Shown: positions 17,489-29,021 of the stretch, in pieces
How positions within the stretch are numbered: the stretch's first letter is position 1
Layout of the letters: each line of letters starts with the position of its first letter
From: Dehalococcoidia bacterium
Lineage (GTDB): Bacteria; Chloroflexota; Dehalococcoidia; Lucifugimonadales; UBA3495
Direction: 5' to 3'
DNA length: 64,000 bases
Assembly (NCBI GenBank): GCA_965262595.1
Contig: OZ253548.1
Location: 1,371,740 to 1,435,739, forward strand
Notes under the pieces: model-generated
What the model was told of the DNA's origin: nothing
What the model saw: only the letters and a program-made list of their open reading frames with translations
Database searches by the model: none
Made by a program: the position numbers and the translations under genes

Positions 17489-17860
17489 TCAGCCGGCGTC
17501 AATTCCCGCATCGGTCAAGGCTTGACCGATGACGTTCAAGTTAGCGCCGATAAGCAATTTGCCGCCCAACCGGGTCACCGGACGCCGGATTAAGCGCGGT
17601 TCCTGAAGCATCAGTCTCAACAATTCGGCGTCGGGTAGTTCCTGCCCGGCCAAGCCCAACTTCTTCAGGCTGGGACTACGCCAGGCAAACAGCTCAGACA
17701 GCGGCGCCAGCGTGGCAAGGTGGTTAATTTCCGTCTCGCTGAAGGGTTCCTTAAAGAAATCCCGTTCCTCCAATTCCAGTCCCTTTTGTAAGAGCAACTC
17801 CCTTACCTTGCGGCAGGAAGATCAACGGGGCCACCAGAAAAACTCTGCCTTTTCGCTCAT
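17489..17860 (-). CDS. ArsC/Spx-family thioredoxin-fold protein with in-frame TGA (candidate Sec) at codon 13
   Basis: The track ORF 17489..17797 starts at an internal TTG. The same frame continues to ATG 17860, which follows GAGGTG. The N-terminus reads MSEKAEFFWWPR-[TGA 17824..17822]-SSCRKVRELLLQKG, which matches the family CxxC(R/K)KA motif. Confidence 0.65.
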
Positions 17861-21923: not shown

Positions 21924-24824
21924 TCAGCCCGCGGCCGCCCTGGCCGCTTCATCGGACTTAACTACCCGGGCCGCAAGGATATCCAGCCCAGGCACTTTGG
22001 ACATAGGATCCGGGTCCTCCGATGCTTGAAGGTCAACCGCTAGTTGGCCGAAAAGAGTCACCACCGAAACCACGCCGGCGGGTATTTCGGAGTCCACCCT
22101 GGCCAGACCGGCCAAACGGCCTCGTCGGGTCTGCACTTCCACCATATCACCTTCGGAGATAGACCAGGAGTCGGCGTCCGACGGGTTCAGCTCTACCAGT
22201 TCATCACGGACGATCCGGTTGCGGCTAACGTTGCCGCTGCTGCTGCCGCTAGTCTCGGTTACCACGTTGATTTCCCGGTCTTCCTGGAACAGCACCCGAC
22301 CCGGAACAAACCAGGCCGGATATTCTTCATCCGGCGGCGCCTGGGAAGAGCGGAACCGGGGAACGATTAGTTCGGCCCGGCCCGACGGGAAACCGTCAAG
22401 ATATAAGACCGCGGTACCGACCCTGGACGTTGTCGAGCCGGGCCACTGAATGCCCCGGTACTCTTTACTGGCATAGAGGAGCTGGGTGGGCTTGGGACTT
22501 TCCAGACCGCTGCGCAGTACCAAAGCGGATTCCGACTCCAGCCTCCCGTAGGATAGGCCGGCGTAGTTGGGCACAACCTGGACAATTTCGTCCATCACCG
22601 CTTCGGCGGACGGGTAATCAAAACCCGGGGCGCCAAGCCTTTTGGCCAATTCGATAAGGAACCACTGTTCGGACTTGGCCTCACCTTTTCCAGGGGCTAA
22701 AACGGGCCGGATTCTCTGGATGCGCCGCTCCAAATTGGTATAAGTGCCATCCTTTTCGGCAAAGGTCGAACGGGGCAGCACCACGTCGGCCAATTGGGCC
22801 GGAGCGCTGAGAAAAGAATCCATCACCACCAGGAAATCTAGGTTTCGGAGGGCGTCCAAGCCCTCTCCCAACCGGCGGTTAGCGAGATTGGAACTGTCGC
22901 CAATTACCATCATCGCCTTGACCGATCCATCCCGGGCGGCGGCTAGTGTTTCAGCGATGCCTCGACCCGGCGCGGTGGGCAGCGAGCATTCCCAACGCTC
23001 CTCCAGTTCGCGGCAGGTCTGGCTGTTCCGTCGGGCGTCGGCTTCGGAGAGGAAGCCCGGTCCAACTCCGGGCAGGCGGTTGGGGATACAAGCCATGTCC
23101 CAGGAACCCTGTTCGTTGGCGCCCTGACGCATCGGGTAGATACCGGCGCCGGGTTTGCCCACGTTTCCGGTCAGCAAAACCAGGTTAACCAGGGCATTGA
23201 CACAGTCCCGTTGCAAATCTTCAGGGACGTTATCCAGAGCGTAGCATAGAGCAGCGCAATCCGCCTCTCCGAACAGTCGAGCGGCTTCGGCAATCCGTTC
23301 CTGAGAGACCTGGGTAATTGCCGCAACTTCACCCAGGTCCAGGTTGTTCAAATAATAGTAGAGTGTAGTGGGGGACTCACAATTGCGCTCAATCCACTCC
23401 GTATCTACCAGGCCTTGGTCTAGCAGCTCCCGCAGGATGCCACCCAGAACCAATAGCTCGGTGCCGGGGGCGGGCCGGAGCCAGCAGCGGGTATAACGGG
23501 TCAGTTCTACTTCCCGGGGGTCGATAACAACCAGATTTGCGCCGTTCTGCACTGCCCGCTTAATCGGCACGCCCACCACGTTGTTGGCCTCGGTGAGGTT
23601 GGAATTAAAAACCAGGATGCAACCGGCTTGCTCCAAGTCCCAGATAGGATTGGTCGCCGCCCCGTAACCCAGGGCTTGCTCCAGGGCAATGGTTAGTTCC
23701 GGCTGAACGTTAGAGGTGAGGTCCACGTTATTGGAGTTCATCACTGCCCGGGCAAATTTCTGCGCCAGGTAGAGTTCTTCGTTGGTGCCGTCGGGCGAGG
23801 CCAGCAAGGCGAAGGAATCGCCTTTATACCGGGAAAGCTGCCCGGCAACAAAGTCCAGCGCTTCCCCCCACGTAGCCTCGACCAGGTTTCCATTGCGGCG
23901 AATCATCGGTTGCCGCAACCGGCTCCGGCTGTTGATGAACTCCAGGCCAAACTTACCCTTAAAGCAAGCCTGCCCCCGATTGGCCGGAGAATTATGCTCC
24001 GGTACGACCCGGATAAGCTCGCCGCGGCCGTTTAGTTCCAGATTTAGCTGGCAGCCGACCGGGCAGTGGGGACAGACGGTACGTTCTACCGTCCGCGCCT
24101 TTTCCCACTTATGTTCCCGTTCCACCAGCGCGCCCACCGGACAAACATCGATGCAGGAGCCGCAAAACTCGCAGCCCGATTCCAGCAGAGAGGAGCCAAA
24201 AGAGGTGCCGACCAAGGCTTTACCGGACCGCTCGGTGAAGGTAATTGCGTTATCGCCGCGAATTTCCTCGCAGGCCCGTACACAGCGTCCACAGGTGATG
24301 CACAAGTTATAGTCCCGGTCATAGAAAGGGTCGCTGACTTCCAGGGGAATCTGCTTGTAGTTGTAATTGAGGGCCGATTCCAGCTCCATCCCCAGGTAGC
24401 GCACCGTGTCCTTGAATTCGCAGCGTTCGTTCTTGGGGCAGGTGACGCAGCGGTCATTAACCGACACATGGCGGAGACAAATATCGTTGGGGCCGCAAAT
24501 ATCAACGCGGTGGCAGGTGAGACAGCCGCTGGGATGCTCGGCGATGAGCATTTCCATTACTGAGCGACGCAGTTCATTTACTTCATGAGTCTCGCTGCGG
24601 ATGCTCATACCGTCCTGAACCGGCAGGGTGCAGGCGGCGGGATAGCCCCGGCCGCCTTCCACCGAAACAACGCACATTCGGCAGGCGGCAAAGGGTTTCA
24701 TGCCGGGGTGATAGCACAAGTAGGGGATATATATGCCGGCGTCAACCGCCGCTTCCAGGACCATTTTTCCGGGCTGAGTTTTTATCTCGATTCCGTCAAT
24801 GGCGATGGTGATATCGTCGGGCAT
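21924..24824 (-). CDS. NuoG / formate-dehydrogenase-alpha-like Fe-S molybdopterin-fold subunit
   Basis: The N-terminus has a 2Fe-2S domain, several 4Fe-4S Cys clusters and the CPHCPVGC motif, followed by a molybdopterin oxidoreductase fold. No Cys or Sec was seen at the FdhF ligand position. Confidence 0.8.
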   Translation of the reverse strand: MPDDITIAIDGIEIKTQPGKMVLEAAVDAGIYIPYLCYHPGMKPFAACRMCVVSVEGGRGYPAACTLPVQDGMSIRSETHEVNELRRSVMEMLIAEHPSGCLTCHRVDICGPNDICLRHVSVNDRCVTCPKNERCEFKDTVRYLGMELESALNYNYKQIPLEVSDPFYDRDYNLCITCGRCVRACEEIRGDNAITFTERSGKALVGTSFGSSLLESGCEFCGSCIDVCPVGALVEREHKWEKARTVERTVCPHCPVGCQLNLELNGRGELIRVVPEHNSPANRGQACFKGKFGLEFINSRSRLRQPMIRRNGNLVEATWGEALDFVAGQLSRYKGDSFALLASPDGTNEELYLAQKFARAVMNSNNVDLTSNVQPELTIALEQALGYGAATNPIWDLEQAGCILVFNSNLTEANNVVGVPIKRAVQNGANLVVIDPREVELTRYTRCWLRPAPGTELLVLGGILRELLDQGLVDTEWIERNCESPTTLYYYLNNLDLGEVAAITQVSQERIAEAARLFGEADCAALCYALDNVPEDLQRDCVNALVNLVLLTGNVGKPGAGIYPMRQGANEQGSWDMACIPNRLPGVGPGFLSEADARRNSQTCRELEERWECSLPTAPGRGIAETLAAARDGSVKAMMVIGDSSNLANRRLGEGLDALRNLDFLVVMDSFLSAPAQLADVVLPRSTFAEKDGTYTNLERRIQRIRPVLAPGKGEAKSEQWFLIELAKRLGAPGFDYPSAEAVMDEIVQVVPNYAGLSYGRLESESALVLRSGLESPKPTQLLYASKEYRGIQWPGSTTSRVGTAVLYLDGFPSGRAELIVPRFRSSQAPPDEEYPAWFVPGRVLFQEDREINVVTETSGSSSGNVSRNRIVRDELVELNPSDADSWSISEGDMVEVQTRRGRLAGLARVDSEIPAGVVSVVTLFGQLAVDLQASEDPDPMSKVPGLDILAARVVKSDEAARAAAG

Positions 24825-24878
24825 TCCATCCTCTCCGGCCCGGCCTTGAAACCGGGCTAGGTAACGGGCGTTGTTAGT

Positions 24879-26642
24879 TTATCTCCGGCTGAGTTGGGGC
24901 GAAAAATAAGGCGCACAGCAGCGTCCGGTAGGGCAAAGTCGCTCGTTAATGTGAGTATCGAACTCGTCGGCAAAATAACGCAAGGCCGAGGCTACCGGAT
25001 TAAAACCCAACTGCCCGTGACCGCACAGCGAACCGGCCTGCATATTTTCGCCAATGGTCCGCATCAAAGCCAGGTCTTCCGAGTTCCCCTCCAGACGGGT
25101 AATACGTTCCAGCACTTCCAGCAGATGGCTCATACCCATTCGGCAGGGGAAACACTTGCCGCAGGACTCATACTGGCAAAAGGCGATGAGTACCCGGGTC
25201 AAGTCCACCACGCAGGTGTCCTCGTCGGCGGCAATGATTCCACCGGAACCAAGGATGGCTCCGGCGTTGCGAAACACTTCAAAATCCAGGGCCAAATCGG
25301 TGGCTTCGGCGCTAAGGACGCCGCCCAGCGGCCCGCCGGTTTGGATAAACTTGAGCTTCCGCCCATTGGGAATGCCCCCGGCAATTTCGTAAAGCACATC
25401 CTGCAGATTGATGCCCATCGGCAGTTCCACCATGCCGGTATAGTTCAAAGCGCCGGTGAGACAGAGAATCACCGTGCCGGTACTGCGTTCGTGGCCGATG
25501 CCGGCGAACCATTCGCCGCCGCGAGCGATAATCTCCGGAACGTAGGCCAGGGTCTTGACGTTATTTACGTTGGTTGGCTTGCCGAACACCCCGACCTGAG
25601 CCGGAAAGGGCGGACGGTACCGGGGCATGGCGCGGCTACCCTCGATGGCCTCCATGAGGGCGGTTTCCTCGCCGGAAACGTAAGAATCCCCGGTCAATGC
25701 AATTTCCAGGTCGAAGCTGAACCCGGAACCGAGGATATTTTCGCCCAGCAAGCCCAACTCGTAAGCCTGGGCGATGGCGGCGCGGGTCCGCTCGATGGGG
25801 CCGTCGTGCCCGTGGCGAATAAATATATACCCGTAATGAGCGCCGGTGGCGTAGCCGGCCAGAATGATGCCCTCCACCACCGTATGCGGATCGCTTTCCA
25901 GGATACCTTTATCGTTAAACGCGCCCGGGTCGCCTTCCTCGCAATTGCACAGGACATACTTGACCGGAGCATTTGACCCGGCCAGGAACCGCCACTTGGT
26001 CCCAGTGGCAAAGGCGGCGCCGCCCCGGCCCCGCAGACCGGAAACGTTGACTTGCTCCAGGACGTCGGCGGCGGTCATTTCGGTCAGGGCTTGATTCAGG
26101 GCATGATAGCCGCCGTTAGCCACATACTGGAACAGGTCCAGCGGGTCAATATGTCCGGCATTGCGCAGGGCGATACGCTGTTCCCTGGCCCGCATGGGGT
26201 GACGGTTCAAGTCAGGTAAGCCTGCGGCATGGGACGGGGCGACATTCGGGGAACCACTCTCCGGGTCGCCGTCTTTTTCGTCGTCACAACCCAGGTAACC
26301 CAGGGCCAGGTCTTCCAGCGGTATTCCATGTAATACGTGGCGAACGACAATCTCCTCGGCTCTCTCCGGGGTAACATTGCCATAGAAGACGCGAGACTGG
26401 CCGGGCACCAGCACATCCACCAGGGGTTCGGCAAAACAGAGGCCCAGGCACCCAACCCGGCTTACCGCAGCGGTCGCGCCGTGCCGCTTCAGGGACTCTT
26501 CGATGGCCCTAACTACTTCATCGGCCCCGGCGGCTTGGCCGCACAAAGCTGTGCCCACCCGAATCCAGGTATGGCTGCCTTTAGTCAACGACTGCCAGCG
26601 TTGCCGGGCCTGAGCCTGAATGTCCTCAAAGGTTGGGGCCAT
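24879..26642 (-). CDS. NuoF-like NADH-binding FMN/4Fe-4S subunit with N-terminal thioredoxin-like 2Fe-2S domain
   Basis: The motifs GGAAFATGTKW, CNCEEGDPGAF and ESCGKCFPCRMG are present. Confidence 0.85.
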   Translation of the reverse strand: MAPTFEDIQAQARQRWQSLTKGSHTWIRVGTALCGQAAGADEVVRAIEESLKRHGATAAVSRVGCLGLCFAEPLVDVLVPGQSRVFYGNVTPERAEEIVVRHVLHGIPLEDLALGYLGCDDEKDGDPESGSPNVAPSHAAGLPDLNRHPMRAREQRIALRNAGHIDPLDLFQYVANGGYHALNQALTEMTAADVLEQVNVSGLRGRGGAAFATGTKWRFLAGSNAPVKYVLCNCEEGDPGAFNDKGILESDPHTVVEGIILAGYATGAHYGYIFIRHGHDGPIERTRAAIAQAYELGLLGENILGSGFSFDLEIALTGDSYVSGEETALMEAIEGSRAMPRYRPPFPAQVGVFGKPTNVNNVKTLAYVPEIIARGGEWFAGIGHERSTGTVILCLTGALNYTGMVELPMGINLQDVLYEIAGGIPNGRKLKFIQTGGPLGGVLSAEATDLALDFEVFRNAGAILGSGGIIAADEDTCVVDLTRVLIAFCQYESCGKCFPCRMGMSHLLEVLERITRLEGNSEDLALMRTIGENMQAGSLCGHGQLGFNPVASALRYFADEFDTHINERLCPTGRCCAPYFSPQLSRR

Positions 26643-26760
26643 ACTAATTTTTACTCAAGGGATTCGCCGGATAGCGGCAACTTCCGGGGAGCGCCCGGCC
26701 TACGGCCTTCGGAACGAAGATTTTCTCAAAACGAGGCATTGCCCCCATTCCTGCTCCACC

Positions 26761-27249
26761 CTATCCTTGCCAGGCGTCGGCCAGGGACTTGCTCAAAGTC
26801 TTTATTAGATTGTCCCGAGCCCGCTCCGGAGACAGGCGGCCCATTAGTCGATGGTCAACGGACATTACCGGCGCTTGGGCGCAAGCCCCCAGGCAGGTGT
26901 TGTAGCGCACCGATAGCTTGCCGTCCGGCGTGTCTCCCTCCGCCGCCAGTCCGGCAGCCTCCAGAACGGCGGCAATAACCGGCATCGCCCCGACCAAGTG
27001 GCAAGACGGGCCCCAACAAACCTCGACATGATGCTCGCAGGGTGGCACAGTACGAAAGTTGGGGTAAAAAGAAACCACCGCCCAAACATCGTTAACGGTG
27101 GCCCGGTTAAACCCGGCTACCGCTTGCACGGCTTCTTTGGGGATATAGCCCAACTCGTCTTCAACGGCGAGCAAGGAGGAGAGGATAGTAACGGTAGGTT
27201 GAGGTTGATTGTGGACGGCCTTCCTGATTCGTTGCTTCAACCCATCCAT
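26761..27249 (-). CDS. NuoE-like 2Fe-2S ferredoxin subunit
   Basis: The Cys pattern is VCWGPSCHL...CLGACAQAP. Confidence 0.85.
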   Translation of the reverse strand: MDGLKQRIRKAVHNQPQPTVTILSSLLAVEDELGYIPKEAVQAVAGFNRATVNDVWAVVSFYPNFRTVPPCEHHVEVCWGPSCHLVGAMPVIAAVLEAAGLAAEGDTPDGKLSVRYNTCLGACAQAPVMSVDHRLMGRLSPERARDNLIKTLSKSLADAWQG

Positions 27250-27401
27250 CGTTTGGGCTCCTTGGCCCCATCTACCTCGGGAGCGAGATTCGCCCAGCGC
27301 CCTTAAAGTAAAGTTCGTGAATAAGGGTAGTTAGTGATTTTTGTAACAATCTCTTCTGTAAATGTTACCACAGGGAAGCGAGCAGGTTCAACCTAAAACG
27401 A

Positions 27402-27420
27402 ACCCGGAACCGGGTCTTTT
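27402..27420 (-). terminator. possible short intrinsic terminator after the dsbA-like gene
   Basis: The minus strand reads ACCCGG-uu-CCGGGU followed by UCGUUUU. The stem is short. Confidence 0.35.
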
Positions 27421-27509: not shown

Positions 27510-28160
27510 CTACTCGCCCTTCAAATACTGATTCATCGCCGACTTGAAAATATCGTAGGGTTGGGCGCCGGTGAAGAGCAGGTTGCCTACCACAAAAGTT
27601 GGTATTCCCCGGATGCCGTACTGCAGCGCCTCCTGGTATTGCTCCATCACCTTGGAGGAATAATGACGGCTTTGCAGCCGGTCCATCAGCTCGTCAGTGT
27701 CCAGGCCCACCGACCCGGCCACCTCTTCAATCGCCGCTAGTTGCCCCAAGTCCTTCCCGTCCTCCCAATAGGCCTTATAGGCGGCGTGGTGAAACTCCAT
27801 AAACTTGCCCTGCTGCTGGGCATACTCGGTGGCTTCCAGGGCATAGCCGGTATTGGGAGTAACCCGGGGCGGACGCATAATCAGGTTAGCATCGCGCACC
27901 TGAGAGCGAATTGGCTCGCTCAACTCGTCCTCGGTTTCTCCGGAACGGGCTTGACGCTGCAAGCCCTCTTTGGGGGTATCCGGACGGAGCAAGTAAGCCC
28001 GCCCCTCCACGGCAATGTTATAGTCCTGGCCCAACTTGTCGACCCGCTCCAGGCCGACGTAGCACCAGGGTCAAATATAATCGTACCAAACGATAACCCT
28101 TACCGGATCTGAGCCGTTCAGGTCGGAGCTGTTATTTGGTTGCGATACCGATTCAGTCAT
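27510..28160 (-). CDS. FrnE/DsbA-like dithiol oxidoreductase with in-frame TGA (candidate Sec) at codon 30: U-P-W-C motif
   Basis: The track ORF 27510..28034 starts at an internal TTG. The frame continues to ATG 28160, with AGGAGG 6 nt upstream. The sequence reads ...VRVIVWYDYI-[TGA 28073..28071]-PWCYVGLERV, against the family consensus CPWCY. Confidence 0.75.
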
Positions 28161-28244
28161 GGTCTGCCTCCTGGCTTAGCTTGAGCATTGAGATAGCCGG
28201 GGGATAACCGGGGATTAGGCGGTGAGAGAATGGCCGCCCCGGGG

Positions 28245-29021
28245 TTATTCGGCGGCCTGCTCCCCGGGATAGAATGGCGCAGTCTCGAGTTTGGAGGGTT
28301 TCACTATGAGGGAATCAGGTGCGTTGACCAGAAGAGCGCCCAGCTCCGAAAGGCCGGCGATTCGAACACAATCGGTTTCGTCGGACTGCCAGCCGCCCCG
28401 GTCCAATAAAACCGGATGTATCCCTACCGCCCGGGCGCCTACCGCGTCGGAACGGGGTTGATCCCCGACGTGTATCGCCTCCGCGGGGTTTACGCCTATC
28501 CGCTCTAAAGCGGCGGTGAAAATTGCCGGGTCCGGTTTTTCGACGCCGACATCGGCGGAAGTCAGGCAGAACTCCAGGTAGGGAGCCAAGCCCAGGTTTT
28601 GACAAAGCTGGTCCATATCCCGCCGCAGGTTGGAAATCACGCCCAGACGATAGCCCTGGCTGCTTAACCCCTTTAGGGTCGGCAGGGTATCGGGAAAGAG
28701 GATAAAGTCCTTGGGGACGCTGATGGCGATCTGCCATATTTGCCGGGCCAAATCCAGCGAGACGGACAATCCGGCATTTTCCAACAGAACCTGTTCGTAG
28801 CGGGAAAAGAAGTCCAGGCGTTCTACCTCGGTGCGACCGGCCAGGGGTTTATTTTCGTTTTCACTGTTGAAGTAAACGTCGGCCACCGAGTATCCATAGT
28901 TGATGCCTTCCTCAGATACGACAAATCCCAACTCTCGGCAAGAGGCTTGCTGAATCTGGTCCAGGGGCGGCCAGAACCGCACCAGGGTATTATAGAAGTC
29001 AAAAAATATGGCTTTGATCAA
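28245..29021 (-). CDS. HAD-superfamily hydrolase (phosphatase-like)
   Basis: The DxYNT-type motif I is (L/M)IKAIFFDFYNTL. The start is probably TTG 29021; the upstream part of the track ORF looks non-coding. Confidence 0.7.
   Translation of the reverse strand: MIKAIFFDFYNTLVRFWPPLDQIQQASCRELGFVVSEEGINYGYSVADVYFNSENENKPLAGRTEVERLDFFSRYEQVLLENAGLSVSLDLARQIWQIAISVPKDFILFPDTLPTLKGLSSQGYRLGVISNLRRDMDQLCQNLGLAPYLEFCLTSADVGVEKPDPAIFTAALERIGVNPAEAIHVGDQPRSDAVGARAVGIHPVLLDRGGWQSDETDCVRIAGLSELGALLVNAPDSLIVKPSKLETAPFYPGEQAAE

Follow-up and report, generated by a model that had tools for sequence, protein, structure and literature searches.

In the canonical selenocysteine (Sec) system of Escherichia coli, the UGA codon of fdhF is accompanied by a SECIS hairpin lying within the coding sequence, and the system further comprises SelB, the tRNA-Sec encoded by selC, SelA and SelD. 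By the bSECISearch model and fdhF itself, a stem 12-13 nt past the UGA, a loop ~19 nt past it and G residues in a small loop make a layout that fits a bacterial SECIS. A DsbA-like protein (COG2761/PF01323) with a UxxC motif was first reported in 2005, from nine sequences of the Sargasso Sea metagenome that carried a predicted SECIS (Zhang, Fomenko & Gladyshev; PMC1088965), and the family has since been catalogued in 4 genomes in 2006 and in 41 organisms in 2016, and covered by reviews in 2022 and 2026 (PMC1794560, PMC5029168, PMC9312934, PMC13188914). Dehalococcoidia MAGs are themselves among the richest selenoproteomes of BSepDB, UBA1141 with 49 selenoproteins being one example (PMC13326102). 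The SAR202/Dehalococcoidia group treated here, which reads U-P-W-C-Y-[VI]-G-L-E-R at its active site, is not named in the literature that we searched on DsbA-like selenoproteins. The novelty implied by a preliminary description of the locus was nonetheless overestimated, as the DsbA-like UxxC protein has stood as a selenoprotein family since 2005 (PMC1088965).

We propose that the DsbA/FrnE-like gene on the minus strand of the window (the whole 64-kb stretch of DNA analysed, out of a genome of ~3.8 Mb) is very probably a genuine selenoprotein gene in which Sec replaces an active-site Cys. Read directly from the sequence, the coding region spans 27510..28160, from an ATG at 28160..28158 to a terminal TAG at 27512..27510, and is preceded by a ribosome-binding site, AGGAGG, at 28167..28172 on the same strand with a 6-nt spacer to the ATG. 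Conceptual translation meets a single internal in-frame stop, the TGA at 28071..28073, in the context VRVIVWYDYI-[TGA]-PWCYVGLERVDKL, and with this codon decoded the product is 216 aa long with the predicted Sec as residue 30. The program-made list of open reading frames holds only the 3′ part, a 174-aa frame at 27510..28034. On re-reading, every coordinate given in the preliminary description (the ATG, the AGGAGG and its 6-nt spacer, the TGA, the 3′ frame and a hairpin downstream of the TGA) proved correct, and translation bore out its statement that the TGA is the only in-frame stop before the terminal codon. The ATG and an AGGAGG-type site are conserved among the orthologous loci, most of which read RR-x-x-M in frame before the Met, equivalent to AGGAGG at equal spacing. 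About 95 nt past the stop codon, at 27401..27416 on the minus strand, lies a weak terminator-like hairpin followed by a T-rich tail, from a consensus scan only that returned 2 sites against 1.1 expected.

Taking the TGA as Cys, we obtain a match to Pfam DSBA (PF01323) with E = 9e-35 over profile positions 2-190 of 191 and residues 22-209, and the score of 120.6 bits against a gathering cut-off of 25.6 makes the product a member of that family. The best matches among solved structures are FrnE (5cnw, E = 3.8e-16) and SCO1869 (3gl5, E = 3.2e-12), covering residues 16-211, and the W-S-D-I-A-C-P-W-C-Y-[IV]-G of these proteins aligns residue for residue with W-Y-D-Y-I-[TGA]-P-W-C-Y-V-G. In both Deinococcus FrnE (WSDIACPWCYIG) and SCO1869 the first active-site Cys falls in the TGA column, and thus the TGA occupies the place of the first, N-terminal active-site Cys, as the preliminary description had read from the C-P-W-C motif; the alignment to Pfam DSBA and FrnE that it had proposed as a check gives a match over essentially the full profile, with the Cys homologues placing their Cys in the same column. 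The resulting motif would be a UxxC at the active site of a thioredoxin fold, U30-P-W-C33, encoded at 28062..28073 (minus strand), and P31, W32 and C33 do not vary across 67 sequences, Cys33 being the sole cysteine of the product. Further along the chain, the Pro187 codon at 27600..27602 (minus strand) lies within G-I-P-T-F, the cis-proline loop position of the thioredoxin fold; it aligns with the GITGVPFFV of FrnE, the proline is present in 66 of 67 sequences, and by analogy with the family it would adopt the cis conformation. The N-terminus, MTESVSQPNNSSDLNGSDPVR, is polar and, judged by eye, has neither a hydrophobic segment nor a signal peptide. The signal peptide and CPHC motif that mark periplasmic DsbA of the E. 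coli type were not found, the motif here being UPWC. Among the NCBIfam models no selenoprotein model reaches its cut-off; the DsbA-like product gives a sub-threshold match to the Rcas_1661 (seleno)lipoprotein family.

Orthologues were collected by scanning one genome per species, which gave 67 related loci, all from Dehalococcoidia/SAR202/Chloroflexota MAGs and sharing 58-86% protein identity with the product; one of these is cut before the TGA site, so that 66 cover the column. The TGA is kept at the column of residue 30 in all 66, each a separate genome, as well as in the window, and the assemblies concerned include long-read and short-read ones. An in-frame stop is usually an error or the mark of a pseudogene, and this prior is all that speaks for reading the TGA as TGC/TGT miscalled in sequencing or assembly, or as a recent inactivating mutation. 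We consider that reading virtually impossible, and indeed refuted by the 66 of 66 loci: the codon persists in independent assemblies down to 58% protein identity, the identical product is encoded on 22 contigs from several samples, and purifying selection acts on the remainder of the gene, which is intact. The preliminary description had held a random nonsense mutation at the redox Cys codon to be unlikely, and conservation on this scale excludes both error and mutation. Above 58% identity, none of the orthologues recovered has the Cys form. We screened the window and the 67 loci for TGA codons flanked on either side by 25 codons free of stops (3,964 candidates). By far the largest cluster with conservation across the codon is that of the residue-30 TGA, with 67 members against at most 25 for off-frame noise, and within 5 kb of the gene the screen gave no other conserved in-frame TGA, only off-frame noise.

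One pair of loci in the set is unusual. The identical DsbA-like locus occurs twice on contig ctg471347 of ENA ERZ25074053 (6.2 Mb), at 0.10 Mb (L070) and at 3.92 Mb (L071), with one copy flanked by transposase and methylase genes. Relatives measure ~2.4-5 Mb, and another contig with the identical product (ENA ERZ28763718 ctg125251) measures 3.76 Mb. The assembly may have fused two strains here, or a large segment may truly be duplicated.

Selection on the protein is visible on both sides of the TGA. In codons 20-29, upstream of it, the amino acids are kept while synonymous variation is present: 4 codons occur for each of the conserved residues V20 and V22, and W25, Y26, D27 and Y28 are invariant. 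Residues that are conserved while their codons vary indicate that the region 5′ of the TGA is translated in the same frame. This bears directly on the reading in which translation genuinely ends at the TGA and the functional protein, of ~174 aa, begins at a downstream start, the 29 upstream codons being untranslated or a short ORF. The output of the ORF tool, 27510..28034 only, agrees with such a product, as do the best 120 database homologues (P0001-P0120), which are annotated at 150-183 aa from varied starts after the TGA, lack the active site and in no case hold a CxxC. A product so truncated would, however, be without beta-strand 1 and the whole redox motif, even though the Pfam DSBA match starts at residue 22, and the upstream codons are conserved as protein, with synonymous variation, behind a conserved ATG and ribosome-binding site. 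The downstream starts moreover vary among orthologues (MEGRAY, MGQDYN, MLRPDT, LEQEYN and others), as is typical of gene-caller artefacts. We therefore regard the true stop as extremely unlikely and attribute the annotated starts after the TGA, and the missing CxxC, to gene callers stopping at the Sec codon; the truncation is a family-wide annotation artefact among these best 120 database proteins.

A second line of evidence for Sec insertion comes from the RNA downstream of the TGA. The preliminary description had pointed out a 7-bp hairpin, GUCGGCC/UGGAGCG/GGUCGAC, at 28038..28058 on the minus strand, 12 nt after the TGA and inside the coding sequence, and had suggested that the region be folded. 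RNAfold recovers this hairpin, extends its stem to 9 bp with a GAG loop and nests it in a longer structure of dG -26.8 kcal/mol; the z-score of -2.48 is modest and refers to a single sequence, 2 of 200 shuffles folding as well. Conservation at synonymous sites adds to this. In an alignment of the 66 nt after the TGA in the orthologous sequences, positions 17-26 (UCGGCCUGGA) are invariant, ten bases that include three synonymous sites with no variation whatever: Val35 is GTC in 48 of the 48 sequences that bear Val (the column being Val or Ile among orthologues), Gly36 is GGC in 67/67 and Leu37 is CTG in 67/67. Six other invariant Gly columns use 4 codons each (1.4-1.9 bits) and other invariant Leu columns use 6 (1.7-2.2 bits). 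Val40 and Asp41, in the 3′ arm, are likewise depleted in synonymous change. The suppression of synonymous variation at UCGGCCUGGA reflects selection on the RNA and not on the protein.

The conserved core of the predicted SECIS pairs 28057..28053 with 28043..28039, plus C28052 with G28045 or G28044 (positions 17-21 with 31-35, and C22 with G29 or G30, in the alignment), leaving UGGA in the loop. Each of the five core pairs is possible in 65-66 of 66 sequences, and seven C-to-U changes at position 33 retain G-U pairing; the conserved stem is short, at 5-6 bp. RNAalifold and pair counting over the 66 sequences detected no compensatory covariation: not one pair has both partners changed, four pairs are constant, shuffles score as high as the alignment itself, and the invariant columns give no test. 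As the arms are nearly invariant there is little from which covariation could arise, and we infer the helix, as a predicted and not a proven one, from its conservation and position. With the stem beginning 12-13 nt past the UGA, the layout fits that of a bacterial SECIS, which by analogy would be bound by SelB. The base after the UGA is always C in the aligned orthologues, and in E. coli a UGA followed by C terminates translation leakily. The codon 5′ of the UGA (28074..28076) reads ATT or GTT in all but one of 66 relatives (65 of 66), although the rest of the gene favours ATC for Ile. This conserved context, NNU-UGA-C, may contribute to the efficiency of recoding. Conservation without covariation would also suit a scheme in which SAR202 decodes this UGA outside the standard SelB/SECIS route, either with a non-canonical tRNA (for Cys or another amino acid) or through a minimal sequence signal, UCGGCCUGGA together with the preceding U, in place of a SECIS defined by structure, and we assign this scheme a very low probability.

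A broader alternative is that the UGA is read through without any Sec system, for instance because a suppressor or near-cognate tRNA inserts Cys, Trp or Gly or because the codon is reassigned across the lineage. The constant C after the UGA and the U that ends the preceding codon in 65/66 loci would suit such read-through, as would the failure to observe Sec machinery within the 64-kb window. Reassignment is contradicted by ordinary use of the codon, as TGA ends 11 of 44 non-overlapping long ORFs of the window, including mutS and an fdhA-like gene, so that no genome-wide reassignment has taken place and any read-through must be local and dependent on a signal. Suppression by another tRNA would also have to account for a site that is the catalytic Cys column of an already catalogued selenoprotein family, for a conserved hairpin at SECIS distance, and for the presence in orthologue-carrying genomes of SelA, which is specific to Sec synthesis. 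We thus consider read-through of this kind very improbable and prefer insertion of Sec.

The searches for Sec machinery itself gave a mixed picture. In the window ARAGORN found no tRNA and no Rfam family matched at its gathering threshold, tblastn with E. coli SelA, SelB and SelD returned nothing from the window or from 1.24 Mb of related loci, and ARAGORN found no tRNA in 60 related loci. As the window is only 64 kb of ~3.8 Mb, the absence of sel genes from it says little. SelA orthologues of the related genomes are ~45% identical to E. coli SelA. In Table S4 of Slaby et al. 2017 (PMC5649159), bin22, a Chloroflexi bin of SAR202 deposited as MPMM00000000, is credited with two copies of COG1921 (SelA), one of COG3276 (SelB) and one of COG0709 (SelD), and all three COGs are present in all five SAR202 bins of the table (PMC5649159). 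Contig MPMM01000001.1 of this same bin carries an orthologue of the window gene (L008) with the TGA and 77% identity. A degenerate DNA scan with the SelA PLP motif GDKLLGGPQAG yielded four Dehalococcoidia SelA seeds, one with selB adjacent, and none of the target genomes that carry an orthologue was among the matches listed (at least 120). A search with the consensus of the four seeds then located SelA at 2.23 Mb and an orthologue (L052) at 2.73 Mb on one and the same contig, CBDFLW010000004.1 (4.07 Mb). A protein search with this SelA found two more (P0131 and P0133, each PF12390 + PF03841) on circular contigs of 5,000,579 and 4,810,504 bp, which we presume, from equal length in bp only, to be OZ253565.1 and OZ250156.1, the carriers of orthologues L041 and L051. 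The SelA of the window species was not among the best 120 matches of the protein search. No tRNA-Sec, SelB or SelD was found within 6-10 kb of SelA in these genomes, and tRNA-Sec genes beside selA/selB came to light in two other Dehalococcoidia (L275, L283) but in no genome with the orthologue.

Next to selA in two SAR202 chromosomes there is a stretch of 0.8-1.5 kb without a called gene (L353 14063..15552; L356 14072..14826), and the gene immediately downstream of it has a C-terminal domain (PF27218, MJ0043_C) as its sole match. Here too an in-frame TGA may have truncated a gene call.

A second gene of the window also has TGA in place of a catalytic Cys. It lies 10 kb downstream of the DsbA-like gene on the same strand, is a candidate selenoprotein gene of the ArsC/Spx family at 17489..17860 (minus strand, ATG at 17860), and reads MSEKAEFFWWPR-[TGA]-SSCRKVRELL; callers report a 102-aa remnant only. 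Comparison with homologues puts its TGA (17822..17824, minus strand) at the position of the catalytic Cys of the family. The TGA is found in ~70 of 80 related loci, including genomes of Smithella/Syntrophaceae, and Cys takes the TGA column in nine loci (L122, L141, L142, L143, L144, L146, L147, L152 and one further). Its downstream hairpin (17788..17806, minus strand) has compensatory pair changes, sequences read directly having both partners exchanged in three pairs (U-A to C-G, A-U to G-C and G-C to A-U). In NCBIfam the gene reaches the ArsC family (seleno)protein model at sub-threshold level only, and ArsC-like proteins are a published selenoprotein family (PMC1088965). The ArsC-like and DsbA-like TGA genes share several MAG chromosomes, OZ240220.1 and OZ244064.1 among them. 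With two independent Sec-type genes in 64 kb, a host that decodes Sec is the economical conclusion.

The remaining neighbours of the DsbA-like gene offer no clue to its substrate. The most conserved is a HAD-family hydrolase gene (28245..29021, minus strand), which precedes the DsbA-like gene directly, 84 nt away, in 62 of 67 loci and might share an operon with it. Downstream on the minus strand (21924..27249) are genes for a NuoE-like 2Fe-2S protein (26761..27249), a NuoF-like protein (24879..26642) and an FdhA/NuoG-like molybdopterin protein of 966 aa (21924..24824), which together look like a soluble NAD-linked formate dehydrogenase module and are syntenic in only ~29 of 67 loci. As the large-subunit ORF is uninterrupted, this FdhA-like protein would be a non-Sec form.

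The reading of the TGA as Sec, put forward in the preliminary description, is thus supported by the family match, by a TGA kept in all 66 loci that cover the site, by conservation of the hairpin and by SelA in genomes that carry orthologues. A mechanism can be outlined by analogy with the canonical bacterial system. The UGA at 28073..28071 would escape being read as a stop during translation, the hairpin 12-13 nt downstream, with its invariant core UCGGCCUGGA...GUCGA, serving as a bacterial SECIS. Binding of SelB-GTP-Sec-tRNA(Sec) to this hairpin would deliver selenocysteine into the ribosomal A site. The product would then be a cytoplasmic thiol-disulfide oxidoreductase of 216 aa with a thioredoxin fold, in which the attacking N-terminal active-site residue is Sec (U30-P-W-C33). 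The Sec/Cys pair would be expected to cycle between selenolate/thiol and selenenylsulfide and so, presumably, to reduce or isomerise the disulfides of its substrates.

The value of the finding is mainly practical. SAR202/Dehalococcoidia are an abundant lineage of the ocean and of sponge symbionts, and with the catalytic motif missing from the annotations their functional and redox inventories miss a predicted active oxidoreductase, a loss that applies equally to the ArsC-like gene 10 kb away. The locus also provides a clean example of a predicted SECIS within a coding sequence that is visible purely as suppressed synonymous variation.

When set against E. coli fdhF, the locus has the same layout for Sec insertion, with an in-frame UGA, a hairpin within the ORF ~11-13 nt downstream and G in the small apical loop, whereas the conserved stem is shorter (5-6 bp) and its sequence is unrelated to the fdhF SECIS. 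With FrnE of Deinococcus radiodurans and SCO1869 of Streptomyces coelicolor, cytoplasmic DsbA-family disulfide oxidoreductases with Cys at the TGA position, the product shares the W-x-D-x-x-C-P-W-C-Y-[IV]-G context, the G-[IV]-P-x-F loop and the lack of a signal peptide, although overall similarity is distant. The FrnE chain of 260 aa runs ~40 residues past the end of the 216-aa protein, whose residue 216 aligns at ~217, and the C-terminal tail of FrnE has a further CxxxxC pair that the window protein, with Cys33 as its only Cys, lacks. By its sequence the window protein is therefore best described as FrnE-like in its core and, without the C-terminal extension, not as a full FrnE equivalent. 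The closest counterpart is the DsbA-like protein form 1 of the selenoprotein catalogues, with which the locus shares the Pfam domain, the UxxC motif, Sec for the first Cys, a stem-loop after the UGA and a marine or symbiont source, and from which it shows no essential difference. Knowledge of selenoproteins as such is unchanged, since family, motif and mechanism were already established, and the gene takes its place as a new, mis-annotated member of this family.
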